Shown here: piece by piece, positions 13,920 through 63,296 of the stretch
Layout of the letters: every line of letters starts with the position of its first letter
Numbering within the stretch: position 1 is the stretch's first letter
From: a virus
Lineage: Duplodnaviria; Heunggongvirae; Uroviricota; Caudoviricetes
Direction: 5' to 3' (one strand)
Length of the DNA: 64,000 bases
Virus record (IMG/VR): IMGVR_UViG_3300045988_146577
Notes under the pieces: model-generated
The model's input: only the letters and a program-made list of their open reading frames with translations
Told to the model about the DNA's origin: nothing
Database searches by the model: none
Translations under genes and position numbers: made by a program

Positions 13920-13949
13920 GCGTGGAGGTGTTCTCCACGCTTATTTTTT
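13920..13949. terminator. hairpin with T-run between helicase and primase genes (orientation ambiguous)
   Basis: GCGTGGAGGTGTTCTCCACGC followed by TTATTTTTT on plus strand; weaker U-tract on minus strand. Confidence 0.35.
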
Positions 13950-15288
13950 AGGTAACGTCTAAGATTCGCTCAATGAAGCGCATTTGTTCGAGGTTTTGTT
14001 TAACGCGAATGCTGATCCCTCCCTGCTGGTTACGTGAACCAGCAAAGTAGAGACGAGCCTCTCCTTTCGCTTCTTCTTCTTCGGTTTTGTTGATCGTTAT
14101 TACCAGGTCAGCAATACGTACTTTTTCGATGTTGTCGGCAGCGTGCATCATTGTGGCAACTTCTGACGCGCCACCTTCACGGTTTGTCTGCGATGCCGTG
14201 ATACCAGCAACGTTGTGTTTGTCATAAAGAGCACGTAAGTCGGTATAGATACTACGTATGTTGGCGCGATCATCACGAAGGTCATAACTGGCACGCATCA
14301 AATCTGCATAGTCGACAACAACCATGTCAGGCACCATGCCATTGGCTTTCATGCTGTTAAGCATACGATCCAGATCTGCCGGTGACATACTTCCTGACGG
14401 ACGCTCAACAACCCACAAACTACCAATCCCCTTCGTGGCTCCCAACTCTGCCAACTTACGATGAACCTCATCGCGCCGTTCCACCAGCTTGGACATTTCT
14501 GTCTCCGACAATCTTGCATCAAAACGGTCGGATAAAATGGTGGTGTGAACCTCCAGCGAGAGATACAGAACATTGTAGCCAGCAAGCGTTGCGTTTATGG
14601 AAAACTCACCCATTGCGGTCGATTTACCGGATTTAGCGAACCCCATGAAGAGCACCATTTCGCGCTTTGCCCAGCCTTTTTGGTACAGCAACCTATCGAG
14701 CAGAGGGAGTCCAGTTGTAATGCTGTTTGGCACATACTCCTCTGAAGCCTCATATTCACGCGCTTTCAATCGCTCACTTGCGGAGGTGTAGTAGTCATAG
14801 ATTCCGGTCGCTTCGTTCGATCCAATCTGCTGAACCTTGGCCATGATTGCCATCGCCCCCTGAAAGTCGCCTTTCTCTTTCAGTTCAGCAGCCTTAATCA
14901 GAGCATCATCAAACGCTACGCTTTTTGCGAAGGTTGATACCTGGTCAACCATGTACGAGGTATCGGACAATTTTTCTGCAAGGATGCGCTTAAACGCAGC
15001 AACAACATCGGCGAATAGTTCCTCACGGATAGTCTTATCGCGTTTCGCACGCTTAAGCATATCCAGAATTGCAGATGAAGAGGGCGCGCTCTTGTACATA
15101 CGGTAATAGCCCGAAACCATATTAACCAATATGGCATTGGCCACATTGGCAAATTGGCTAGGCACAACCAGATCTCCCGCACGAGTAAGAAACTCGTGAT
15201 CACGACAAAAATATGCCGTCAGTCTGTTCTGGAAATCTTCATCAAACTCTTCGGACAGCCCGCGTCCTGTATGGCAAAGTTCGGTCAT
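13948..15288 (-). CDS. DnaB-family / RecA-fold replicative helicase
   Basis: 446 aa; Walker A GFAKSGKST, Walker B VVVDYADLM. Confidence 0.75.
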   Translation of the reverse strand: MTELCHTGRGLSEEFDEDFQNRLTAYFCRDHEFLTRAGDLVVPSQFANVANAILVNMVSGYYRMYKSAPSSSAILDMLKRAKRDKTIREELFADVVAAFKRILAEKLSDTSYMVDQVSTFAKSVAFDDALIKAAELKEKGDFQGAMAIMAKVQQIGSNEATGIYDYYTSASERLKAREYEASEEYVPNSITTGLPLLDRLLYQKGWAKREMVLFMGFAKSGKSTAMGEFSINATLAGYNVLYLSLEVHTTILSDRFDARLSETEMSKLVERRDEVHRKLAELGATKGIGSLWVVERPSGSMSPADLDRMLNSMKANGMVPDMVVVDYADLMRASYDLRDDRANIRSIYTDLRALYDKHNVAGITASQTNREGGASEVATMMHAADNIEKVRIADLVITINKTEEEEAKGEARLYFAGSRNQQGGISIRVKQNLEQMRFIERILDVT

Positions 15289-16081: not shown

Positions 16082-16190
16082 CTGGTAGGTAGTTACTTAC
16101 TTATCACAATGAGCGGATGATAGCGACTGGTGGCAGTTTTTGGAAGTGGAAACGGAAGGGAGTTGTTCTGGTGGTGTCTTTTAAAAGACC

Positions 16191-16244
16191 TGCTTCCGTA
16201 TATATTTAATAAGTTACTTATTATTTATATATACAGAAGCAGGC
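16191..16244. repeat. 54-bp AT-rich palindromic element, copy 1 of 2
   Basis: CCTGCTTCCGTATATATTTAATAAGTTACTTATTATTTATATATACAGAAGCAGG; one mismatch to copy at 47801-47855; sits in a divergent intergenic region. Confidence 0.8.
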
Positions 16245-17482: not shown

Positions 17483-17842
17483 TCAACCTTTCTTCATCAA
17501 CTCTCGTTTGATTTCATCGGTACGCATCGTGACATCGGCAGCGGTGATCGCCTCATTCAATTTCACGATGTCCTCGATTTCCTGCGGTGACTTCTCTGCC
17601 AGATGGAAAATGGCTGCTCGAATCACGTCAGAACGAGTGAACTTCTCGAAGCGAGGGATGAACTTCATCATCTCCAGCAGTTCGAAGTATTCGTCCTCCA
17701 GTGACATTGTGCGGCTTTTAATTTTCTCTTTGCCACGAGTCGGGCGTCCCTGTGGTCTGACTGGTTGGCGCAAAGGAGTTGTGTTCTTAGCCGGTGCATC
17801 AGGCTCTTTGCGCTTTGCTAGGTCACCCATTTTCATGGACAT
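17483..17842 (-). CDS. putative partition centromere-binding protein (ParG/ParB-like small partner of ParA)
   Basis: 119 aa ORF directly downstream of and abutting ParA; basic N-terminus; assigned by position only. Confidence 0.4.
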   Translation of the reverse strand: MSMKMGDLAKRKEPDAPAKNTTPLRQPVRPQGRPTRGKEKIKSRTMSLEDEYFELLEMMKFIPRFEKFTRSDVIRAAIFHLAEKSPQEIEDIVKLNEAITAADVTMRTDEIKRELMKKG

Positions 17843-18510
17843 TATTCTTCTTCCTCCAGACTCAACAGATAATCTACAAATTCTTCAAACTCGGCTTCCG
17901 CCTTTTTGTCGCGCTCGCTACCGGTCATTTCAAAGATAGAACGACCAGACTCTTCCGCATCATCATAGACGTTGCGGTTATATAGATTGACTGGCGCAGA
18001 CTCGATTCCAAACGTCTCAACAATCTCTTTAGCCGCCAGAATGCGAGACACTTGTGATGGCAAAGCCGGGCACTGGTTCATGACCGCGCGGACCTTCACT
18101 TTATCGTTTACATTGCGAACATTGTCGATAATAGGATCGATGTCACGTAAAGATTTCAAATCACGACGCTTAGGACGCAGCGGGATAATGATAACGTCAG
18201 CCATCAGCATCGCTTGTCGCTGAATTTCGGAGTCGAAGCCACCAGCATCTACCACTACAAACTCAGCTCTACCCTGAAGCGATTTTAGGTGCTTAATGAT
18301 GTCATCCTGAACGTATGCAAAAGGAATCAGCTCAAGGTCTTCGTTCTGTCGACGGTCTTCACACCAGCTCGTTGTCGTGCGCTGAATATCTATATCGGTA
18401 ATATAAACCTTCTTCTTCTTTTTGACTTTCATGCAAACGGCAATTTGCTGGGCAACGGTGGATTTGCCAGGCCCGCCCTTTGTGCCGCCAACCACAAAGA
18501 TCTTGGTCAT
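17842..18510 (-). CDS. parA: ParA/Soj-family partition ATPase
   Basis: 222 aa; deviant Walker A GGTKGGPGKST at N-terminus. Confidence 0.8.
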   Translation of the reverse strand: MTKIFVVGGTKGGPGKSTVAQQIAVCMKVKKKKKVYITDIDIQRTTTSWCEDRRQNEDLELIPFAYVQDDIIKHLKSLQGRAEFVVVDAGGFDSEIQRQAMLMADVIIIPLRPKRRDLKSLRDIDPIIDNVRNVNDKVKVRAVMNQCPALPSQVSRILAAKEIVETFGIESAPVNLYNRNVYDDAEESGRSIFEMTGSERDKKAEAEFEEFVDYLLSLEEEE

Positions 18511-18562: not shown

Positions 18563-18828
18563 ATATGTGATATAGCCTAAATGCCTACGGCTGCGGTGTA
18601 AAGGTTAAATGGTAGGTTGTGATTAACAATTGGCAATCATAGCTTGTATTTGTCTGTTGAAAAAAGTAACAATGACCTCTATATTACAAGTACGGTGATA
18701 TGCCGTACACAATTTGATAATGCACACGTAATGGGCTATAGCCTTTTAAAGTAATTTTTGAGTCGAAAACTCAGTTTGAACAGAGGAGATTGATGGCCTT
18801 CCTACATCACGGCCATCAGGAGGAATAC

Positions 18829-19098
18829 ATGTCAGCACTAAAAAAGCAGCGCATCGATTTGAGATTAACCGATGACGATAAAAGCATCATCGAGGAAGCT
18901 GCCGCAATGTCTAACCAGAGCATTACTCAGTTTATGGTTAGCAGTGCATCTGAACGTGCCGTGAAAGTTATAGAGCAACACCGTAGACTAGTTCTGAATG
19001 AAGAATCCTGGAATCTGGTTATGGACGCTATAAGCAATCCTCCGGCACCGAACGACAAGCTGAAACGAGCTGCTGATCGTCTGAAAAGCATGGAGTAG
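18829..19098 (+). CDS. DUF1778/TacA-like antitoxin (partner of GNAT toxin)
   Basis: Start at ATG 18829 after SD AGGAGG (track ORF begins at 18790); about 89 aa; sits directly upstream of GNAT gene. Confidence 0.65.
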   Translation: MSALKKQRIDLRLTDDDKSIIEEAAAMSNQSITQFMVSSASERAVKVIEQHRRLVLNEESWNLVMDAISNPPAPNDKLKRAADRLKSME

Positions 19099-19105
19099 TT
19101 TACTC

Positions 19106-19627
19106 GTGAGCAATACAACGATAGAGATTTTCTCTGGAGAGAAAGATTATGATCTAAACGGTTTTGATTGCGGCGAAGAGTCACTAAACGCCTTTTTAGC
19201 CAACCACTTAAAAAGGCAGCATGAGGGAAAAATTCTTCGTGCTTATGTGCTTTGCACTCAAGAAGAAAGGCCAAAAGTGTTAGGATATTACACTTTGTCA
19301 GGTAGTTGTTTTGAAAAGGAGTCCTTACCTTCAAGAAGCAAACAAAAGAAGGTTCCTTATCGGAATGTTCCAAGTGTTACTTTGGGTAGGCTGGCTTTGG
19401 ACAAGTCCCTTCAAGGTCAAGGATTTGGCTCAATGCTTGTAACACATGCAATGCGCGTTGTGTACAATGCATCTCTTGCTGTAGGCATTCATGGACTTTT
19501 CGTTGAGGCGTTAAATGACAAAGCCAAGGCGTTTTATAAAAGTTTAGGCTTTATCCAGCTGGTTGGTAACAACGAGCGTTCTTTGTTCTATCCTACAAAA
19601 TCTATCGAAAAATTGTTCGAAGAATAA
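19106..19627 (+). CDS. GNAT-family acetyltransferase toxin (TacT/AtaT-like)
   Basis: 173 aa; acetyl-CoA binding motif RLALDKSLQGQGFGSMLV; 8 nt after antitoxin stop. Confidence 0.7.
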   Translation: MSNTTIEIFSGEKDYDLNGFDCGEESLNAFLANHLKRQHEGKILRAYVLCTQEERPKVLGYYTLSGSCFEKESLPSRSKQKKVPYRNVPSVTLGRLALDKSLQGQGFGSMLVTHAMRVVYNASLAVGIHGLFVEALNDKAKAFYKSLGFIQLVGNNERSLFYPTKSIEKLFEE

Positions 19628-45794: not shown

Positions 45795-47051
45795 CTATCG
45801 AGAGCCACCAAGAATAACACGGTTTTTGACTGGATACCTACGATGTACTGGATAGCCCAATGCGTCTGCACTATGCTCAATGCCACCTGTCTTATCCATA
45901 TCTCGTGTTCCAGGCTTGTAGATGACTTTTTCCAGTGAATCAATCAAATGCTTGCACTTCGGATCGATATACAGCCGGATATCTCCAGATGCGGTCATCA
46001 GCATTCGGTTAACAGCATTAACACGATCCGCAATTGGCGGGTGCTTTTTCGAATAATCGACACGTAAGAATCCCTTCTCTTTGAATATGTCGACGTCAGA
46101 CTCCCCGCGAGCATGTTGGCGATAAGCACCTGCCGGATCTGGAAATACCGTTATCTGTGATTTCCAGCGCCAGAAGCGTCTCTCAAGCTCATCACAAACC
46201 TCTGCCGTGTTAGAGGAAAAGAGCACCAATTCATCAATTGCCCATAGCTCACCATTTGGCTGAGGTTGCAAAATTACTGAAGACATCGGGTCAATGTTGA
46301 AGTCCTGCCCTACCCATATAGGCAACCGAGGGTTGAACTGAAGCGGTTTTACATGCACGTTACGATCGAACGGGTAGTAAACGCGCCCGGACATGTTCTC
46401 AAAGCTCGCCAGGTACTCCTGAGCGAACGATTTCGGGTCCATATCGTTCTTAGCAGCTTCAATTTCCGCCGTAGGTACAAACGGAGAATCGGCAGTTACA
46501 AACTGCCAGCTCTTCCACTGTCCCTTTCTTTGCAGCTCTACGTTCTGGCCTATAGTCCACAGTTTGTGAAATTCCGAGAAGCCTTTTGGCGTACCAATGA
46601 TCAGTGCACCGCCGCGTGTCGATGAAAGAGTAGGTCGTAACACCTTGTACCAGGTGTCAGCCTTCATATCCTGAAATTCATCAAGCACTACAAAATGCAA
46701 CGCTACGCCGCGCAGAGTGTCAGGCTTATCAGCACCTTTGAGGGCGATCTCCGAACCGTTCTTCAACACGATTGTCATCGTGGTGTCGTTCTTTCTCCTA
46801 ACCCACTTACGAGGCAGAACTTCCTGTAGATCGTCCCACAAAATCTGGCGAGCCATCTGGTAAGTAGGAGCGACATACCAGACCCTTTGCTTTTTTTCCT
46901 TTGCCGCCGCACGAATAATAGTGGAGATCGACAACCGGGATTTTCCCCAGCGTCGACCAGCACAAACAACTTTAAATCGATGCGGAGACTGGAAGACTTT
47001 CATCTGTCCAGAATGCAGTTGCACAAGACTGAGCGAGGACGGGATTGCCAT
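45795..47051 (-). CDS. terminase large subunit
   Basis: 418 aa; Walker A VVCAGRRWGKS, Walker B-like VVLDEFQDM, C-terminal nuclease-like region. Confidence 0.8.
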   Translation of the reverse strand: MAIPSSLSLVQLHSGQMKVFQSPHRFKVVCAGRRWGKSRLSISTIIRAAAKEKKQRVWYVAPTYQMARQILWDDLQEVLPRKWVRRKNDTTMTIVLKNGSEIALKGADKPDTLRGVALHFVVLDEFQDMKADTWYKVLRPTLSSTRGGALIIGTPKGFSEFHKLWTIGQNVELQRKGQWKSWQFVTADSPFVPTAEIEAAKNDMDPKSFAQEYLASFENMSGRVYYPFDRNVHVKPLQFNPRLPIWVGQDFNIDPMSSVILQPQPNGELWAIDELVLFSSNTAEVCDELERRFWRWKSQITVFPDPAGAYRQHARGESDVDIFKEKGFLRVDYSKKHPPIADRVNAVNRMLMTASGDIRLYIDPKCKHLIDSLEKVIYKPGTRDMDKTGGIEHSADALGYPVHRRYPVKNRVILGGSR

Positions 47052-47683
47052 TATTCGTCCTCCCCTTCACTTCCATCATCTGTCGCATCAAATTCGCTTA
47101 GAGCTTCTTCTTCCAACGTCTCAAGCAATTCGTCATCGATGATTTCAGGCTCGTCGTCTTCCTGACGTAATTTCGCCACCTGGGAAGGCGTAAGCTCACC
47201 AAATACCAGGTTCGGAATTTCTTCCTCGTCATTTTCCGCATGATCCATGCCCAATGCTTTGGACGAAACTTCAAAGCATTTTGCAAGGGTATTACTGGCT
47301 CTCTGTAAGCTCTTGAGAGAATCCTCAATCGCCCCTAAAGGCTTACCCTCACGTTTGGCCGTAGTGACTTCGACCATCACCATCTGCCCCAACGCATACG
47401 CCCAGCCGTCATAACGTGTACGACGTTCTTCTATCTTTTCCGCACGGGCTTTAGCGCGAAGCTCTGCGTCAGATTTAAGAGACTCACGAACCATCTTCCC
47501 AACAGAGTCCGCGCCTTTCTCTAATCCTCGCTTTTTGAAATGTCTGGAGAGTGTTTCACGACGAATGCCGTACTCTTCCTCCAGCTTTGAGAGTGTATAT
47601 TCGCCTGACGTCCATTTGGCTTCAGCTTCGGCCCACTCCGCTGGTGTCAGGCGAGTTTTTACCTCGTCTTTTTCGACCGTCAT
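47051..47683 (-). CDS. terminase small subunit (HTH)
   Basis: 210 aa; N-terminal HTH-like region, acidic C-terminus; abuts terminase large subunit. Confidence 0.6.
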   Translation of the reverse strand: MTVEKDEVKTRLTPAEWAEAEAKWTSGEYTLSKLEEEYGIRRETLSRHFKKRGLEKGADSVGKMVRESLKSDAELRAKARAEKIEERRTRYDGWAYALGQMVMVEVTTAKREGKPLGAIEDSLKSLQRASNTLAKCFEVSSKALGMDHAENDEEEIPNLVFGELTPSQVAKLRQEDDEPEIIDDELLETLEEEALSEFDATDDGSEGEDE

Positions 47684-47723
47684 AGATCCCTCTAAAACAC
47701 ACAGAGCGCGTCCATGCGCTCTA

Positions 47724-47764
47724 AAACAACTTGTTTACTGCATCTTCTAACCAACTTGTTTTCT
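47724..47764 (-). promoter_or_regulatory. operator motif A, two half-site copies upstream of terminase small subunit
   Basis: AAACAACTTGTTT and CCAACTTGTTTTCT 40-80 nt upstream of start at 47683. Confidence 0.5.
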
Positions 47765-47800
47765 GGGGTGTTTAATTAGGTCTGGGCATGTCTTACTAAG

Positions 47801-47855
47801 CCTGCTTCCGTATATATTTAATAAGTTACTTATTATTTATATATACAGATGCAGG
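47801..47855. repeat. 54-bp AT-rich palindromic element, copy 2 of 2
   Basis: One mismatch to copy at 16191-16244; lies between the ParB/ATPase/GNAT/wHTH operon and the terminase operon. Confidence 0.8.
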
Positions 47856-47879
47856 TCTTTAAATAAGCTCCCAGACCGA

Positions 47880-48146
47880 TTACATCACCAGTAACTTCGC
47901 TTTGGCTCGACCTAAAGTGGTTAACCCAAGAGTTCGGCGGTGATAGCGATTGTCACTGCGTTGGCGCGTATGCCCTTTCTCCACCAGCCCCTTTTTTATC
48001 AGAGCGCGAATTGAGAACTGGATACTTTGCTTGGTTGTCTTGTACGGCAAAACTTCAAGCAATTCGTCCAGATCAAGTAGATGACCTCGCTCATAACCGA
48101 GATTGAGCGTTTTGATGATGTCCTTTTGTTTATCGGTTAACGTCAT
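47880..48146 (-). CDS. small winged-HTH-like DNA-binding protein (last gene of ParB-ATPase-GNAT operon)
   Basis: 88 aa basic protein; 10 nt downstream of GNAT-fold gene. Confidence 0.5.
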   Translation of the reverse strand: MTLTDKQKDIIKTLNLGYERGHLLDLDELLEVLPYKTTKQSIQFSIRALIKKGLVEKGHTRQRSDNRYHRRTLGLTTLGRAKAKLLVM

Positions 48147-48155
48147 GGCAAATCC

Positions 48156-49046
48156 TTATGCCGGTAAAGCAATTTCTAACGGTTTATCCAAAGGTTGTTT
48201 GTCGAATGCCAGCAGTGGCAGCGTGTCAGGCAGTCGACGGCCAAAGTCAGGGTTTCGGTACACACCATACAACGGAGACGTAAAGCTCAGGTTGTGAATG
48301 TCCTTGAGCAGCTTCACAATGCTGGCCTCGTCCACCAGACTGTCGGCAATGTCCTGAATCGTCGTGCCACGATTCCGCCCAGCTTTTGCCAGGGAACTGT
48401 TCTTGTGGTAGTCCGCCACCAGATCACGCAATGCACGGCGACGACGAGACTCGCTCATTGCGAACAACTCTTTGACGATCGCCTCGTTATCACCCGGGTC
48501 GGAACGGAAATGGCGCTGGAATACACGCAGTGCACTTTCATAGCTCTTCGGTCGCTCAGGGCGGATGAACTTAAACCCTGCTTTCATGGCGAAGGGATTG
48601 TATTTGCTCATCGAGGACTGGATCTCAATGATTGGCCGGTCATGCATCCTGCTAACCAGGTTAATCATTCGATAAGAGACGCCTACGCCACGATACTGAG
48701 TATCCACAACTGAGCGACTGATCACCGCAAAGTTGTTATTCACGTACCGACCCCAGTACTGGTTAGCCACGGTGGTATTAGTGGTTGGTTTCAACTTAGG
48801 AAACATGCGGTGGCGAGGTGCCAACAGTAGTTTCGGGTAAGCCATAACCACGACGCCCACCAGACGGTCATCAAGTTCGCAGCGATAGTAAGTTGGCGCG
48901 AAAGGTTTGCCGTCTGTTTTGTAGTGAAGCGACTTAAGAGCGTGCCAGTCCTCTACAGTTCCCTTTGTGACAGTCATTCGCTCCAGAAAGTCCAGATGAC
49001 GCGGAAACTCTTCAGGGCGGTAGCGTTTAATGATGATGTCCGTCAT
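48156..49046 (-). CDS. GNAT-fold (acyl-CoA N-acyltransferase-like) protein with extra C-terminal domain
   Basis: 296 aa; motif-A-like RSVVDTQYRGVGVSYRMINL; 4-nt overlap with upstream ATPase gene. Confidence 0.55.
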   Translation of the reverse strand: MTDIIIKRYRPEEFPRHLDFLERMTVTKGTVEDWHALKSLHYKTDGKPFAPTYYRCELDDRLVGVVVMAYPKLLLAPRHRMFPKLKPTTNTTVANQYWGRYVNNNFAVISRSVVDTQYRGVGVSYRMINLVSRMHDRPIIEIQSSMSKYNPFAMKAGFKFIRPERPKSYESALRVFQRHFRSDPGDNEAIVKELFAMSESRRRRALRDLVADYHKNSSLAKAGRNRGTTIQDIADSLVDEASIVKLLKDIHNLSFTSPLYGVYRNPDFGRRLPDTLPLLAFDKQPLDKPLEIALPA

Positions 49047-49708
49047 AAATGAACCTCATCATGACTACCATTGTGATATTCCACCTTCACGCGTTCTTTG
49101 TAGTGCTTGGTGATCTGCATATCCGGGCGCAGCGCGTTCTTCAGGTCTTCGTGAGTCGTCGCCACCATTACCGTTGCACCAACCTTTCGAGCGGCACGCT
49201 GGAGGTTAGATGCCACAACCTGAGCGGTTACACGGTCTAGAACAGCACCGAACTCGTCAGCAGCCCACACTTTAGCGCCTGACTCAATCAGTTTGGCAAT
49301 CTTGAGACGATATTTCTGACCGTCTGACATTTCAGAAGGCTTGCGAACAAACAGATATGCATCGTTCAGACCAGCCATAGATAACAACCCAAGCGCATCG
49401 CTGGTCGTTTTGCCCAACTGATCGATGACGTTAACCTCATTATCGAAGGTAAAATCATCGATGGAGGCTACAGACAGCCCTTCATCCTTCATCTGTCGTT
49501 GCAACTCGCGCAGCACAACGGATTTGCCGGAACCGGATTGGCCGGTGATGTACACCACATCGCCCTGCTTCACTTCCAGCTCCAGATTGTCGTAAAGCGT
49601 CCACTCTTTTTCGTCCAGGCCAAGCCCGAACGACTCAGCGATTTCCAACGTGCGAGTGGTTTTATTTACGCGTGTCTGAAACGATACGTTGATGATGTAT
49701 TTGCTCAT
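49043..49708 (-). CDS. ABC-type ATPase (nucleotide-binding domain only)
   Basis: 221 aa; Walker A GQSGSGKS, signature-like MSDGQKYRL, Walker B VWAADEFG, H-loop-like TTHEDL. Confidence 0.7.
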   Translation of the reverse strand: MSKYIINVSFQTRVNKTTRTLEIAESFGLGLDEKEWTLYDNLELEVKQGDVVYITGQSGSGKSVVLRELQRQMKDEGLSVASIDDFTFDNEVNVIDQLGKTTSDALGLLSMAGLNDAYLFVRKPSEMSDGQKYRLKIAKLIESGAKVWAADEFGAVLDRVTAQVVASNLQRAARKVGATVMVATTHEDLKNALRPDMQITKHYKERVKVEYHNGSHDEVHL

Positions 49709-50406
49709 GCAGCCATCTCCCCGGAAGAGATCTTCTCCGCATATGCCACAAATGCGTCTACCCCGCTTTCTCCCGTCATTTCTTCCATGTGGGCAAGCAA
49801 ATCACCAACAACAATGGCAGAGCCAGCAGGGAGCGTTTTAAAGCCCAATACGTCGACAACACGTACTTCTTCCGCTGCAACTTCACGACTGATCTCGGTG
49901 TGTTCATCCTTCTGTCGTTTAGTTTCTTCGCCAAGATCGATAACTAGCGAGTCGGTGTCCATTTCTTCTGTCATGCTGCCAACGAGAACATTCAACTCAC
50001 GCTCTTCAAAGCCGAAAACCTCGATATCGTCCAGAACAAGCGACTCAAGCTCTTTCTGTAGCTTAATTGCATCGTAATCAATGCTGGCAAGTCGGTTATC
50101 TTCAAGGCGCTTCGCACGAACCTCGTCATCACTGAGATCATCGCGAACAATAACCGGTACGCGCTCAAGTCCAGCAAAAATTGCAGCCTCACGGCGGCCG
50201 TGGCCAGTAATAATTACGTCGTTCTTATCGACCGTAATTGGCTGGTCAAATCCGCGCTTTTTAATGGCTGCGGCCAGATCTCGGATCTGCTGTTCATCAT
50301 GCTTTTTGGCATTCATCTCATAGGGAATAAGATCTGCCGGGTCGCGATATACGATTTCAAACTTTTTGGTCATTACATACGCTCCTTGTAGTAGTCGACC
50401 AGCCAC
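49705..50406 (-). CDS. ParB N-terminal-domain (ParB/Srx-like) protein, paralog 1
   Basis: 233 aa; ParB-box-like ITGHGRREAA; no obvious HTH; acidic C-terminus. Confidence 0.65.
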   Translation of the reverse strand: MAGRLLQGAYVMTKKFEIVYRDPADLIPYEMNAKKHDEQQIRDLAAAIKKRGFDQPITVDKNDVIITGHGRREAAIFAGLERVPVIVRDDLSDDEVRAKRLEDNRLASIDYDAIKLQKELESLVLDDIEVFGFEERELNVLVGSMTEEMDTDSLVIDLGEETKRQKDEHTEISREVAAEEVRVVDVLGFKTLPAGSAIVVGDLLAHMEEMTGESGVDAFVAYAEKISSGEMAA

Positions 50407-51071
50407 ACCAGAGCCTCACCAGCGTTCTCCATTTCATTACCGGTGTTAATAGCCTGCTCTTTGATGATGTTTTTTATGGTTTCTGCAACACGATCTGACG
50501 CATCGAAAGTTACTTTGAAGCGCATGGTCTGATGTTCCGCACCCACACGTTCGGTTTTCTCTCGTTTGTCGGTATCGACAGGCTCATCACTACCACGAGA
50601 CAACGCCTCCAGTGCTTCAAGGTCGATTGCCGCCTCTTTTGCTAAAACCATCGAGATTTCGTCGTCATACGGGGCGATTTCAGACAGTTGATAGTCAAGT
50701 TCTGACTGAATTTCTTCAATGAAGCGTTGCAATGCGATTTGGTCGTCTTCACCGTATCGCTCGTTGTCCACCAGTGACATCTGTTTAGCTACGACATCGC
50801 TAATTTTGCCCACAGAAAGCACCGGAACCGTTGAAATTCCTTGCTCAATAGCAGCACGCCAGCGATGTTCGCCGCCGAGGATTTCAAAAAATCCATCTTC
50901 AAGTTCACGAGCCAAAATTGGCTTAAAAAAGCCCAATTTTTCGATAGAACCTTTCAGTTTTTCAAAATTCTGCGCACCAACCGAATTGGTGTTCCAGGTA
51001 TTCGGGCGAAGGTTGGCAACATCAACCTGCAAAATCGTGATTTTTACATCCATTTTATTGCTACAATCCAC
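50373..51071 (-). CDS. ParB N-terminal-domain (ParB/Srx-like) protein, paralog 2
   Basis: 232 aa; classic ParB box ILGGEHRWRAAIEQG; first gene of operon. Confidence 0.7.
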   Translation of the reverse strand: MDCSNKMDVKITILQVDVANLRPNTWNTNSVGAQNFEKLKGSIEKLGFFKPILARELEDGFFEILGGEHRWRAAIEQGISTVPVLSVGKISDVVAKQMSLVDNERYGEDDQIALQRFIEEIQSELDYQLSEIAPYDDEISMVLAKEAAIDLEALEALSRGSDEPVDTDKREKTERVGAEHQTMRFKVTFDASDRVAETIKNIIKEQAINTGNEMENAGEALVWLVDYYKERM

Positions 51072-51135
51072 TAAGTAATCACTTACTTATTATAATAGCC
51101 AAATAACATACAAAAGGCACTAAGGAAAGAGGTTT

Positions 51136-52695
51136 ATGACTGTTCGGATTGTATCTAACGCAGTTAATGCGCTTATTTCTGGCGCAGATGACAAGGTAAA
51201 GCAAATGGTGCAACAGATGTTGAGCTACGAAGTCGAGACTGGCGACTGGAAGGGCACAAGCACGATGTTCAACTGGAGTAAAAACTCGTTCCCTGCTGGC
51301 TTTGCCAAGCCTGTAGCGGCGAACTTGAACAAGGCGGGCATAAAATGTGTTCATATCCGCAAAGACAAAGCCCCGGCGCTTGGTAAACCAAATCCGGCGG
51401 TTAACCCATTCCCATGCAATCCTGATTATGCGTATCAGGATCAGACTGTGGAAACACTAGTTCGAGAGGGAATGATGATTGCGCAGATCGCTACTGGTGG
51501 CGGGAAATCTAATGTTGCCTGCAAAGCAGCTGCACGTATCGGTCGAATGACATTATTTTTAACAACCCGCTCTGTTCTGATGTTTCAGATGGCCGAAAAC
51601 TTCCAGAGATCCATCGACTACCGCGCCGAAAATGGCGAACCGTGGTTAAAAGACCAAAAGGTTGGAGTCATTGGCTCGGGTGAGTTCCAGGTATCACGAC
51701 ATATCAACGTCGCTACAGTTCAAACTCTTGCAAGTTTCCTCGAAGAACCACCACGCGATGCAACACCAGATAAGAAAAGCTTCCACCTCAAACGTCGGGA
51801 GTTGGTGAAACGCTTCCTTTCAAGTGTCTCTCTTCTTATTCTGGAAGAGGCGCATGAGTCTTCAGGCTCAAATTTCTATGACATTGCCAGATTATGTGTG
51901 AACGCAGACTATCGTCTGGCACTTACGGCCACGCCGTTCATGAAGGATTCTACAGAAGCCAACATGCGTCTGATGGCTGTGGCTGGGCGAATTGAAATCA
52001 AAGTCACAGAAAAGTACCTGATTGATCGAGGCATTCTGGCAAAACCGTACTTCCTTTATCATAAAGTTGCCTACAAGCCAGACGAGGTCAGAATAAAGGC
52101 GGAACTTGCCAACAAACACCTCAATTTTAGAGTTGGTATGAGCACCGCCTACCAAAAGGCTTATCAGTTGGGGATCGTGTATAATTTGGGACGTAACGAG
52201 GCCATTGTGCGCGAAGCATTGCTCTATAAGCAACATTCTCTCAATTGTATGACTCTGGTTCGTCTTAAACGCCACGGGCAAATCCTGATGGAAATGATGA
52301 AAGAGTCCGGCCTTAGAGTTGACTTCATTTATGGGGAATCGAACCAGTCGACAAGGCAAGCAAAGCTGAACAGTTTAGCGTCTGGTGAAATAGATGTTTT
52401 AATAGGCTCGACTATTCTGGATGTTGGTGTTGATGTGCCAAGCGTTGGTGCGGTCATTCTTGCTGGTGGTGGGAAAGCAGAAGTTGAAATGAGACAGCGT
52501 GTCGGTCGTGGCTTACGAGCCAAGAAGAATCAGGCAAACGTGTGTTTTATCACTGATTTCATTGACATTAGCAACAAATACCTGTTGTCTCACTCTTATG
52601 AGCGAAAACACATCATCGACACCACACCTGGCTTTGCAGAAGGTGTATTGCCTATTGATGGCGCATTCGATTTTGGAGTTCTGAAACGAGATTAG
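51136..52695 (+). CDS. superfamily-2 helicase (DEAH-like)
   Basis: 519 aa; motif I ATGGGKS, motif II LEEAHE, motif III TATP, motif VI QRVGRGLR. Confidence 0.8.
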   Translation: MTVRIVSNAVNALISGADDKVKQMVQQMLSYEVETGDWKGTSTMFNWSKNSFPAGFAKPVAANLNKAGIKCVHIRKDKAPALGKPNPAVNPFPCNPDYAYQDQTVETLVREGMMIAQIATGGGKSNVACKAAARIGRMTLFLTTRSVLMFQMAENFQRSIDYRAENGEPWLKDQKVGVIGSGEFQVSRHINVATVQTLASFLEEPPRDATPDKKSFHLKRRELVKRFLSSVSLLILEEAHESSGSNFYDIARLCVNADYRLALTATPFMKDSTEANMRLMAVAGRIEIKVTEKYLIDRGILAKPYFLYHKVAYKPDEVRIKAELANKHLNFRVGMSTAYQKAYQLGIVYNLGRNEAIVREALLYKQHSLNCMTLVRLKRHGQILMEMMKESGLRVDFIYGESNQSTRQAKLNSLASGEIDVLIGSTILDVGVDVPSVGAVILAGGGKAEVEMRQRVGRGLRAKKNQANVCFITDFIDISNKYLLSHSYERKHIIDTTPGFAEGVLPIDGAFDFGVLKRD

Positions 52696-62999: not shown

Positions 63000-63296
63000 T
63001 TACCAGTTCCAGCACTCAAGCCCTTCAACGACCGGTGCACCACAATCAAAATGTACAGAGTCAAAGCCTACATCAAGTACTTTCTGAATGTTAGCAATCG
63101 CGCCTTCGGATATACCATATCGACGCAAGTCGTCTTTCCAGACATCATCCTGTAACCCGGCGTGGACAATACAACCGCCATCAATTTGTGAAACCCAATC
63201 CAGCTCATTGCTTGCGATCATGAATCGGCGAGCATCTTCCTCTGATGTATGAGATGAGCTGATCAATGCCACCTGGTAGGCTTGGGTAATGTTCAA
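63000..63296 (-). CDS. hypothetical protein
   Basis: Start re-assigned to ATG near 63296 after SD GGAGTGG; about 98 aa; two motif-A copies upstream. Confidence 0.5.
   Translation of the reverse strand: MNITQAYQVALISSSHTSEEDARRFMIASNELDWVSQIDGGCIVHAGLQDDVWKDDLRRYGISEGAIANIQKVLDVGFDSVHFDCGAPVVEGLECWNW

Follow-up and report, generated by a model that had tools for sequence, protein, structure and literature searches.

An operon of ParB-like, ABC ATPase and GNAT-fold genes beside the terminase genes of an SSU5-family phage-plasmid, and its predicted role in DNA acylation

What is the function of an operon in which two ParB-like proteins, an ABC-type ATPase, a GNAT-fold protein and a small winged-helix protein are encoded together beside phage packaging genes? 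The question is raised by a minus-strand gene set in a 64,000-nucleotide stretch of tailed-virus DNA (hereafter, the window), which belongs to an SSU5-family phage-plasmid and is 99.6% identical to the E. coli LF82 plasmid (phage Cyrano). An earlier note, made from the sequence alone, did not recognise this domain combination as a named system; loci of this kind had in fact been described by Aravind's group, with a predicted role in phage DNA modification (PMC7824862, PMC4738411). The operon and its surroundings, in the direction of transcription of the five genes, are as follows.

51136-52695, plus strand: SF2 (DEAD/UvsW-like) helicase gene, divergent from the operon (ResIII, DEAD and Helicase_C matches; phrog_16)
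51054-51135, no strand: ParB1-helicase divergent intergenic region, 82 bp, presumed promoter region with TATAAT and ATAATAAGTAA
50373-51053, minus strand: ParB1, ParB N-domain (NTP-binding fold) protein, 226 aa
49705-50373, minus strand: ParB2, paralogous ParB N-domain protein, 222 aa
49043-49708, minus strand: soluble ABC-type ATPase, 221 aa
48156-49046, minus strand: GNAT-fold acyltransferase-like protein, 296 aa
47880-48146, minus strand: probable winged-helix DNA-binding protein, 88 aa, last operon gene
47801-47848, no strand: AT-rich palindromic element, 48 bp, between the winged-helix and TerS-like genes
47702-47723, minus strand: GC-rich hairpin with T-rich tail, terminator-like, 19 nt upstream of the TerS-like start
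47051-47683, minus strand: TerS-like HTH protein (phrog_867)
45795-47051, minus strand: large terminase, TerL (Terminase_6N 3.4e-9; phrog_2/10250)

Gene layout and protein folds

All five ORFs claimed earlier were found, each with a full-length PHROG family match, but the spacing between them needed partial correction. The two 4-nt overlaps stand (ATGA, joining ParB2 to the ABC gene and the ABC gene to the GNAT gene), whereas ParB1 and ParB2 overlap by 1 nt (TAATG) and not by 34 nt, the larger figure having arisen because the longest ORF was taken for ParB2, and the gap between the GNAT and winged-helix genes is 9 nt, not 10. The ParB2 start is the ATG at 50373 in GenBank and RefSeq annotation, and its PHROG alignment begins at residue 12 of the longest ORF. 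ParB1 starts with the ATG at 51053 in the annotation of Cyrano and pLF82, and a GTG at 51071 is an alternative start. The terminator-like hairpin may end the five-gene transcript, as judged from its sequence, in a window where the consensus-scan total of such sites is no higher than chance.

Profile search and mutual similarity (33% identity over 116 residues, E 5e-10) confirm that the first two proteins are paralogues with a ParB N-domain, both passing the Pfam ParB_N cut-off (35.0 and 49.9 bits vs 26.3). ParB1 (Pfam ParB_N 3.3e-13; phrog_723 2e-79) has Spo0J, ParB and Noc as PDB sequence matches (2.6e-9), and its box II, G61-E62-H63-R64 (GEHR), aligns with the GERR of Spo0J; beyond the N-domain, the ortholog alignment displays an acidic linker followed by a conserved C-terminal domain of ~55 aa. 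The AF2 model of ParB1 was unusable (pLDDT 36). ParB2 (Pfam ParB_N 1.5e-8; phrog_930 1.2e-112; phrog_498 'DNA methyltransferase' 5e-32) is similar to ParB domains found fused to phage DNA methyltransferases, and its match to PADLOC MTase_II (2.7e-17) is limited to the ParB domain. Its box II is degenerate, G57-H58-G59-R60 (GHGR), lacking the catalytic Glu and one Arg. ParB folds can bind CTP, ATP or GTP (PMC12704722).

The third protein is, as had been claimed, an ABC-type ATPase, and profile search and motifs confirm it as complete (phrog_293 6e-59; Pfam ABC_tran 5.8e-13, 50.1 bits vs a cut-off of 25). Its motifs comprise Walker A (G56-K62-S63), the signature (S128-D-G-Q131), Walker B (D151-E152), the D-loop (D158) and the H-loop (H186), and the equivalent positions are invariant in the homologue alignment, fusions included; an N-terminal FGLGxDE motif is family-specific.

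For the fourth protein, the GNAT fold and the extra C-terminal domain described in the earlier note were both recovered, but the window protein did not reach the Pfam Acetyltransf cut-off. Its family match is phrog_886 (1.2e-164), and it has no Pfam family, Acetyltransf_10 scoring 14.4 bits vs a 23.6 cut-off, whereas the homologous fusion protein of phage Jace does pass (Acetyltransf_1, 35.9 bits vs 20.7). In the AlphaFold model the protein adopts a GNAT fold, with a mixed beta-sheet and a V-shaped opening between beta4 and beta5, and phage Mu Mom is among the nearest structures; the similarity to Mom is at fold level only, hhalign detecting no sequence homology (probability 0.4%, 11 aligned columns). 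The core spans residues about 20-165, and residues 169-296 make up the mostly helical extra domain. The CoA-pyrophosphate motif A (Q/R-x-x-G-x-G/A after beta4) is kept as R119-G-V-G122-V-S124; R119 and G122 are invariant across 30 sequences, about 35 invariant residues are conserved, and the ABC-GNAT fusions carry the same motif as RGIGLG. The operon is under purifying selection, and of all proteins in the region the GNAT protein shows the highest conservation (96.6% amino acid identity at 82% nucleotide identity, higher than the 95.0% of TerL). Judged by fold and conserved motifs, the ABC and GNAT enzyme looks active.

The fifth protein (phrog_900, 1.9e-45) is probably a small winged-helix DNA-binding protein. 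The earlier suggestion of a winged-HTH-like fold agrees with weak profile matches, all of which are to winged-helix families: the PADLOC CARF C-terminal region (4.5e-5), NCBIfam Sta1/Lrs14 (0.0025-0.004) and LexA_DNA_bind (0.072), along with Penicillinase_R (0.0046) for the RHEph10 ortholog.

Relatives, fusions and linked genes

An exhaustive HMM search returned 898 relatives, many of which are fusions of ABC_tran and GNAT-like domains of 450-500 aa. ATPase and GNAT form one polypeptide in archaeal, planctomycete and actinophage relatives, and the window ATPase matches the N-terminal half of the archaeal fusion proteins at E up to 4e-61 (phmmer). Their fusion elsewhere marks the two proteins as one functional unit, which the earlier note did not see. 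Isolated phages that infect Pseudomonas, Rhizobium, Stenotrophomonas and Xanthomonas also keep the set, as do archaeal proviruses. ParB genes adjoin ABC-GNAT in proteobacterial, actinobacterial and planctomycete viruses; in archaeal ABC-GNAT loci no ParB was detected by profile, so that ParB is not a universal partner. Other arrangements include a fusion of ABC-GNAT to family-B DNA polymerase (PolB) in viral replication modules with no terminase nearby (P0207), a fusion to a TFIIB repeat (P0157) and an intein inside the ATPase (P0165). In RHEph10, the ABC and GNAT genes are separated by an inserted Tad2-like anti-defence gene (5e-23).

The linked genes also bear on the acyl donor. In Rhodococcus phage Jace the gene order is ParB, ABC-GNAT, aspartate decarboxylase (2e-33) and CoA-transferase III (2e-8), and among 42 related loci a CoA-transferase is found in 20 and an aspartate decarboxylase in 16. 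In Jace and its relatives, the presence of these two genes after the fusion is a sign of a dedicated acyl-CoA donor. The SSU5 operon contains no donor-synthesis genes.

The neighbouring helicase had been described as a replication helicase, a description that has to be withdrawn: it is an SF2 DEAD/UvsW-like protein, while the DnaB-like helicase lies at 13948-15288. It adjoins the operon only in the SSU5-nickie-RHEph10 lineage and is present at 4 of the 114 wider loci, and it could be a putative accessory of the system. In the intergenic region between the two, no site was reported within 51054-51135 by a consensus promoter scan. The 11-mer ATAATAAGTAA, of which the window holds three exact copies, recurs in the palindromes past the downstream end of the operon and at 16.2 kb; a half-site-like AATAAGTAAGTGATT lies at 51077-51091.

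The earlier note considered a DNA-modifying role plausible, and this is the best-supported reading, given the fusions, the ParB, PolB and TFIIB context and the linked donor-synthesis genes. We put at about even the chance that the operon is an ATP-driven, ParB-assisted DNA acyltransferase module, the SSU5-family version of terminase-linked DNA-modification loci. In its favour are further the breadth of the terminase linkage and the Tad2-like insertion in RHEph10; weighing against it are the SSU5 operon's lack of donor-synthesis genes, the archaeal loci in which no ParB was detected, the degenerate box II of ParB2 and the result that a DNA-binding domain could be identified in neither ParB protein.

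Terminase linkage and alternative readings

Conservation of the operon beside packaging genes is wide among tailed viruses, both those of bacteria and those of archaea; the earlier note did not see that the link to terminase reaches archaeal viruses. In the window, 829 nt separate the operon from TerL on its downstream side, and the same order is found in nickie, RHEph10, ANB28, JGB6 and SL25. More widely, 72 of 114 ABC-GNAT loci (15 of 31 clusters at 50% identity) have TerL no more than 3.5 kb away, and in about 48 of 80 IMG/VR loci it is translationally coupled, its identity as a terminase having been confirmed with Pfam. The earlier note had allowed for a known partition or packaging set conserved beside terminase in well-studied phages; of this, conservation beside the terminase was indeed found, in many sequenced phages, which goes partly against the note. 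The tight coupling to TerL fits a packaging role without DNA modification equally well.

Such a role would have ABC-GNAT and ParB proteins assemble at or near pac/cos and control the initiation or termination of packaging, for instance by acylating a target such as TerS, TerL, portal or a host nucleoid protein, or by serving the terminase as an ATP-dependent clamp on DNA. We regard this as unlikely. Many GNATs act on proteins, and in most archaeal-type loci TerL is the immediately adjoining gene, often translationally coupled. A further point in its favour is the AT-rich palindrome, which lies about 30-80 bp from the operon end and inside which two independent linear GenBank records, those of SSU5 and Cyrano, come to an end (window 47818/47819). 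An identical copy is located at 16189-16236, so that the window holds two exact copies vs 0 expected; the DNA hairpin has a dG of -14.1 (z -6.6), each SSU5-family genome carries 2-5 copies, and the element may be a protein-binding or terminase site and a putative part of the system. However, TerS-like candidates are already present directly upstream of TerL, both in the window (phrog_867) and in archaeal loci (150-aa ORFs), and the PolB-ABC-GNAT fusions reside in replication modules away from terminase. The linkage to aspartate decarboxylase and CoA-transferase suggests a special acyl donor, as is usual in hypermodification pathways but not in regulatory acetylation.

A second possibility, which we consider quite improbable, is an anti-defence or host-takeover enzyme that acts on host proteins or small molecules, with the ParB proteins as NTP-binding regulators. 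Its targets might be RNA polymerase (as phiKMV Rac acylates), defence effectors, signalling nucleotides or polyamines. Conservation of the module across bacterial phyla and archaea, in hosts with very different targets, argues against this, as does its repeated linkage, physical or genetic, to proteins that handle DNA (PolB, TerL, ParB, TFIIB-type and winged-helix domains), which indicates a DNA context. No model of the PADLOC defence-system library matched the operon; matches were at the level of the P-loop or the ParB domain only, with none for the GNAT protein.

Very improbable is a second plasmid-maintenance or silencing system, in which the ParB paralogues would be KorB-like CTP clamps and the ATPase would stand in for ParA; the system would serve partition or incompatibility, or would repress the late genes of the plasmid prophage over a long range. 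The element is indeed a plasmid prophage, both proteins have a ParB N-domain with partly conserved NTP motifs, and the dispersed palindromes could be parS-like sites. Nevertheless, the canonical ParA with a small partner that the earlier note placed at 17.5-18.5 kb is present there (a ParA/MipZ-like ATPase, 17842-18510, and its partner of 119 aa; locus 17483-18510). It is the only ParA-like gene, 30 kb away, with none adjacent to the operon, the ATPase of which is ABC-type and not ParA/MinD-type. Both ParB proteins score under the TIGR00180 cut-off (43.0 and 43.3 bits vs 58.45) in alignments confined to the N-domain, and neither an HTH nor any other DNA-binding domain was identified in either, their C-terminal parts having no Pfam or PDB match. 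The set is also kept by isolated phages, by archaeal proviruses that are integrated and by actinophages that have linear cos genomes, and the GNAT enzyme would be left unexplained; the earlier judgement that this is unlikely to be the partition locus is thus upheld. Likewise, the operon is distinct from the GNAT toxin-antitoxin pair, for which a TacA-like antitoxin and a GNAT were found at 18790-19627.

An ABC transporter or metabolic moron, as implied by PHROG and GenBank names ('ABC transporter ATP-binding subunit', 'moron, auxiliary metabolic gene') and by the best scores of the ATPase to transporter-type nucleotide-binding domains (CcmA, DevA, LolD), is scarcely credible, since no lineage examined has a membrane-domain gene in or near the operon and the name on phrog_886 was apparently inherited from fused homologues, the GNAT protein having no ATPase domain. 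As identities for the operon, a partition locus (no adjacent ParA), a transporter (no permease) and a PADLOC-defined defence system (no model match) were each rejected.

A predicted DNA acylation module and its precedents

Under the DNA acyltransferase reading, we infer DNA as the substrate, together with the chemistry, the timing and an anti-restriction benefit. The core enzyme would be a two-subunit machine, made of the soluble ABC ATPase and the GNAT-fold, acyl-CoA-dependent transferase, that in many other viruses is a single polypeptide. ATP-driven dimerisation of the ABC heads would clamp or remodel phage DNA and offer a base to the GNAT active site, where an acyl group would be moved from acyl-CoA onto an exocyclic amine of the base. 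The donor would be host acyl-CoA in SSU5-type elements and probably phage-made beta-alanyl-CoA in the Jace clade. ParB1 and ParB2 may be NTP-dependent DNA-loading or activating partners, and the small winged-helix protein may serve regulation or site choice. As the module adjoins terminase genes, the mark would probably be written on DNA that is still concatemeric, shortly before packaging or while it proceeds, and it would shield injected DNA from host restriction.

In PMC4738411 and PMC7824862, "ParB-terminase large subunit loci" (Tls) and systems of a GNAT coupled with an ABC ATPase are both predicted to modify phage DNA, and the computational source given there is Iyer, Zhang, Burroughs & Aravind 2013 (NAR 41:7635). 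The SSU5 operon matches the kind of locus predicted in 2013 to place an acyl mark on phage DNA. It shares with the Tls loci the occurrence of ParB gene(s), a predicted DNA-modifying enzyme and TerL in one phage locus, and its enzyme is exactly such a GNAT and ABC ATPase pair; it differs in its separate, overlapping ATPase and GNAT genes, its two ParB paralogues and its extra winged-helix gene. In Tenacibaculum phage pT24, an example from this literature, the window ATPase has a distant homologue (28% identity, 2e-11; hmmsearch 4e-36 vs the fusion profile). Literature searches found no direct evidence of modified SSU5-family DNA and no experimental test of the predicted acyl mark or of any family member.

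Other systems offer partial parallels. Mom of phage Mu is a GNAT-fold DNA adenine N6-methylcarbamoyl transferase that works alone, without ATPase or ParB, whereas the window GNAT protein has an extra C-terminal domain of ~130 aa and its own invariant residues. TmcA and NAT10 are RNA cytidine N4-acetyltransferases in which an ATP-hydrolysing domain is coupled to a GNAT and a nucleobase is acetylated from acetyl-CoA. They provide an analogy for a GNAT that needs an ATPase to act on nucleic acid, but their ATPase is a RecD-like helicase domain and not ABC-type, their substrate is tRNA or rRNA, and no homology was detected. The proposed ParB role has experimental precedent in ParB-dependent thymine dioxygenases of phages and in DpdB with DpdA. 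A phage ParB-like protein is needed for DNA thymine dioxygenase activity on dsDNA (5mYOX176/ParB176; O'Toole et al., PNAS 2026, PMC13229309), and terminases neighbour ParB-dependent dioxygenases in 19% of contigs (PMC13229309). ParB176-type proteins, like those of the operon, are short phage ParB-like proteins (an NTP-binding and a C-terminal domain, no recognisable HTH) beside a DNA-modifying enzyme, a likeness of layout and fold; the enzyme itself is an Fe(II)/2-oxoglutarate dioxygenase instead of a GNAT, and an ABC ATPase is absent. DpdB is a ParB-like ATPase that works with DpdA in 7-deazaguanine DNA modification (PMC12839542). This is likewise a ParB-like NTPase that powers a base-modifying enzyme on DNA, although the chemistry is transglycosylation by another enzyme family, and the system is one of cellular defence and not a packaging-linked phage operon.

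We would tentatively go further and propose, with rather less than even confidence, that ABC-GNAT and ParB-fold proteins write an undescribed DNA base acylation on viral genomes handed to terminase. If this is true, the base would receive an acetyl or some other acyl group of the host in SSU5-type elements, but a beta-alanyl group in the Jace clade, and the packaging-coupled chemistry would be ancient, being common to tailed viruses of archaea and bacteria. Carriers of the mark would also include the ~100-kb plasmids found in Yersinia pestis and Salmonella enterica, along with hundreds of phage-plasmids of Klebsiella and E. coli.

Gene content and distribution of the operon

The five-gene operon is real and strongly conserved, and its best-supported reading, in which we place about even confidence, is that of a predicted acyltransferase, driven by ATP and assisted by ParB, whose substrate would be phage DNA and whose action would be connected with packaging. 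All five minus-strand open reading frames (ORFs) described at 47880-51071 are present, and each matches a full-length PHROG family (E-values of 1.9e-45 to 1.2e-164). As an earlier note had proposed, Pfam profile searches find ParB_N in both upstream proteins (ParB1 and ParB2), which are paralogues with 33% identity over the N-domain, and ABC_tran in the third protein. The extra C-terminal domain claimed for the GNAT-fold protein corresponds to residues 169-296, an additional and mostly helical domain, and the CoA pyrophosphate loop of this protein, R119-G-x-G122-x-S/A, is invariant across the family. The description of the fifth protein as winged-helix-like agrees with every match obtained, all of which go to winged-helix families, but these matches are all weak. 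Both 4-nt ATGA overlaps were found as described, whereas the reported 10-nt gap is 9 nt and the reported 34-nt overlap between ParB1 and ParB2 is a single base (TAATG) when the annotated ATG at 50373 is used, which is also where the PHROG alignment starts; the larger figure arose because the longest ORF was taken. The C-terminal 55 residues are conserved in both ParB proteins, and a ribbon-helix-helix fold for them, guessed from a beta-alpha-alpha pattern, is unsupported by PDB profile search or Pfam at E <= 10. The AlphaFold2 model of ParB1, built on 12 near-identical sequences, is unusable (pLDDT of 36); the homology search behind it returned SSU5-family variants only, 85-100% identical to the query. 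Separate partition and toxin-antitoxin loci lie elsewhere, as had been stated: a ParA/MipZ-like ATPase at 17842-18510, whose 119-aa partner is encoded at 17483-17842, and a TacAT-type pair at 18790-19627, in which a TacA-like antitoxin (PF08681, 8.6e-26) is followed by a GNAT protein (Acetyltransf_1/7).

The region 47051-52695 shares 99.6% identity with a 108-kb plasmid of E. coli LF82, 98-99.5% with Escherichia phages Cyrano, CMS-2020a and PhiR41_1, about 83% with Salmonella phage SSU5 and about 80% with Klebsiella phage-plasmids, from which we conclude that the window is part of an SSU5-family phage-plasmid. The same region is found in 793 PLSDB plasmids (307 from Klebsiella, 237 from Escherichia, 92 from Enterobacter, 62 from Yersinia and 49 from Salmonella), and the ABC-GNAT gene pair alone in 744, including, at about 90% identity, plasmids of Yersinia pestis (101-137 kb) and of Salmonella (106.7 kb). 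The five-gene operon belongs to the core of nearly all SSU5-family phage-plasmids. As annotated in RefSeq, the LF82 plasmid also has complete, host-like copies of metG (methionine-tRNA ligase) and apbC (iron-sulfur cluster carrier) at pLF82 77069-80360 (L006:36118-39409, starting near window position 63168), which are unusual cargo for a phage-plasmid.

ABC ATPase and GNAT protein as one predicted enzyme

An exhaustive profile search recovered 898 relatives, many of them proteins of 450-500 aa in which an ABC_tran domain lies ahead of a GNAT-like domain; JGI names such homologues 'ABC-type ATPase with predicted acetyltransferase domain'. These fusions come from Nitrososphaerota and Bathyarchaeia archaea, Planctomycetota and viral contigs. 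The window ATPase matches their N-terminal halves with E-values as low as 4e-61 and shares with them a family-specific FGLGxDE motif and all catalytic ABC motifs, and a distant homologue of it is carried by Tenacibaculum phage pT24. Judged from these comparisons, the ATPase and the GNAT protein behave as one enzyme. Further architectures include a 1260-aa protein (P0207) with a family-B DNA polymerase (exonuclease plus polymerase) N-terminal to ABC-GNAT, and related proteins with a TFIIB repeat C-terminal to ABC-GNAT (P0157) or an intein within the ATPase (P0165). The polymerase fusion occurs on metagenomic viral contigs (L007-L009), where its gene (10001-13783 of L007) is part of a replication module that also encodes PrimPol, a RecA-like protein and a 5'-3' exonuclease. 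No protein of the whole region is better conserved between E. coli and Klebsiella than the GNAT protein (96.6% amino acid and 82% nucleotide identity; TerL, 95.0%).

The two genes overlap by ATGA in the window, and relatives carry inserts at this position, which makes the junction an insertion hot spot. For example, Klebsiella phage pJN2-26 has a 183-aa ORF here without a Pfam match (L168:5430-5981), SSU5 and related Yersinia and Salmonella plasmids have either an extra ORF or a shorter stretch of about 230 bp, and Rhizobium phage RHEph10 has a Tad2-like gene (gp080; Thoeris anti-defence 2, PF11195, 5e-23; L003:5393-5695).

Database names for these genes, such as 'ABC transporter' and 'partition protein', are misleading. 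Both phrog_886 and the GenBank records of SSU5, nickie and RHEph10 label the GNAT-like protein 'ABC transporter ATP-binding subunit' despite the lack of an ATPase domain, a label that appears to have been inherited from fused homologues (COG2401-type). Membership in the family of Mom, to our knowledge the one GNAT-type DNA modification described to date, is ruled out for the GNAT protein on sequence. The earlier note pointed in the right direction, as the DNA-modifying reading is the best supported, but its claim of novelty was too strong: the domain combination, which it did not recognise, is already described in the literature and can be traced to Iyer et al. 2013 as relayed by later papers of the same group. 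The operon belongs to a class predicted by computation, and as a system it is not categorically new. Our literature search turned up no experimental test of this class, no laboratory study of the ABC-GNAT enzyme and none of DNA modification in SSU5-family elements.

Association with terminase, ParB and palindromic DNA elements

The genes are ordered helicase (divergent), ParB, ParB, ABC, GNAT, small protein, TerS-like, TerL and portal. The same helicase-to-portal order, at about 41-58% protein identity, is seen in Pseudomonas phage nickie, Rhizobium phage RHEph10, Stenotrophomonas phage ANB28 and Xanthomonas phage JGB6, and Pseudoalteromonas phage SL25 has ParB, an ABC-GNAT fusion, TerL and portal. 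Searches with iterated profiles built for this analysis place TerL within 3.5 kb of ABC-GNAT in 72 of 114 loci (15 of 31 clusters at 50% identity), and TerL lies directly upstream of ABC-GNAT in about 48 of 80 IMG/VR loci, one of which, encoding a tail tube protein and a YQBQ-like protein, is a tailed provirus. The fusion gene of an archaeal metagenome-assembled genome is translationally coupled to a Terminase_6N gene, a second archaeal case is alike, and in a planctomycete locus the fusion is followed by a TerL_ATPase gene some 1.3 kb downstream. By these gene neighbourhoods, the terminase link is old and broad and extends to archaeal viruses. Such tight coupling to TerL favours the main rival explanation, a packaging role without DNA modification; the presence of separate TerS-like genes and the position of the polymerase fusions away from terminases speak against it. 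ParB genes accompany the enzyme in bacterial lineages; in the archaeal loci, none was detected with the profile built for this analysis.

In about one third of the viral contigs (L087-L166, IMG/VR), the ABC-GNAT ORF runs to the contig end or stops no more than 100 nt short of it, and the contig often finishes precisely with the stop codon. This is not evidence for a physical genome terminus, since contig ends at stop codons fit provirus trimming at gene boundaries, which explains the bias most simply; alternatively, the gene might lie at the edge of an integrated element.

The locus also contains a palindrome that recurs elsewhere in the window, together with the 11-mer ATAATAAGTAA, which has three exact occurrences in 64 kb where about one would be expected even allowing one mismatch.

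Palindromes and ATAATAAGTAA copies in the window
47801-47848: 48-nt AT-rich palindrome, flanked by the winged-helix and TerS-like genes
16189-16236: exact second copy of the palindrome, in a divergent intergenic region near DnaB-like helicase and ParA genes
47826-47836 and 16214-16224: ATAATAAGTAA, inside the two palindromes
51077-51093: third copy of ATAATAAGTAA, in the intergenic region upstream of ParB1, beside TATAAT
51077-51091: palindrome-related half-site, in the intergenic region upstream of ParB1

The palindrome (DNA hairpin dG of -14.1 kcal/mol, z of -6.6) is present in two to five copies per SSU5-family genome, and the linear GenBank records of SSU5 and Cyrano end within the copy beside the operon (window 47818/47819). 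The palindromes could act in termination, bind a protein or serve as a terminase site, and together with the related half-site could be loading or cleavage sites. ATAATAAGTAA is perhaps an operator or promoter element common to its three positions. Consensus scans for promoters and terminators of the operon gave no more sites than in shuffled sequence, and TATAAT at about 51095 as promoter and a hairpin at 47702-47723 as terminator are offered as suggestions only.

Predicted acyl donor and possible biological implications

Rhodococcus phage Jace encodes a ParB-like protein (gp85), an ABC-GNAT fusion (gp86), an aspartate decarboxylase (gp87; 2e-33) and a family III CoA-transferase (gp88; 2e-8) in one operon (L170:4447-7212); gp86 matches the fusion profile (hhalign probability 99.9%, E-value 6e-35) and passes Pfam Acetyltransf_1. 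This gene order recurs in L174-L192, with a second ABC-GNAT paralogue after the CoA-transferase in some of these loci (L174-L179). Jace-like enzymes are encoded in 42 IMG/VR loci: 24 of these have ParB ahead of the enzyme, 20 have a CoA-transferase and 16 a decarboxylase after it, and in four TerL comes next. Aspartate decarboxylase produces beta-alanine, which a CoA-transferase could activate, and from these linked gene families we infer a beta-alanyl-CoA pathway. Because both genes adjoin the enzyme, the Jace clade appears to produce its own acyl-CoA donor, which is a better fit to a pathway of hypermodification than to regulatory acetylation and predicts that a beta-alanyl group (+71 Da) is transferred. 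No PanD or CoA-transferase homologue occurs in the 64,000-nt window, so that host acyl-CoA would serve as donor there. The linkage of donor-synthesis genes also counts against packaging without DNA modification, which we regard as unlikely. Partition, transporter and defence-system readings each fail their defining tests, the last being rejected for want of a match to any PADLOC system.

A phage thymine dioxygenase acts on dsDNA only with the help of a short ParB-like protein in which no DNA-binding domain is recognisable (O'Toole et al. 2026; PMC13229309), and DpdB is a ParB-like ATPase serving DpdA (PMC12839542). The nucleotide bound by ParB folds can be CTP, ATP or GTP, and phages often have these folds fused to DNA methyltransferases (PMC12704722). 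If the predicted acyltransferase is real, the operon would represent a new enzymatic route to modified DNA, unusual in being driven by ATP, and would be the second, independent instance in which ParB-fold proteins serve enzymes that modify DNA. Since the operon is widespread in PLSDB plasmids, it may influence the host range of clinically relevant plasmids, the restriction barriers they meet and the methylome calls made for them by sequencing. Experimental handles are provided by the treatment of the ATPase and GNAT protein as one enzyme, by the archaeal reach of the terminase link and by the donor genes of the Jace clade, which predict the transferred group. The locus is a good and specific target for finding a new DNA modification.
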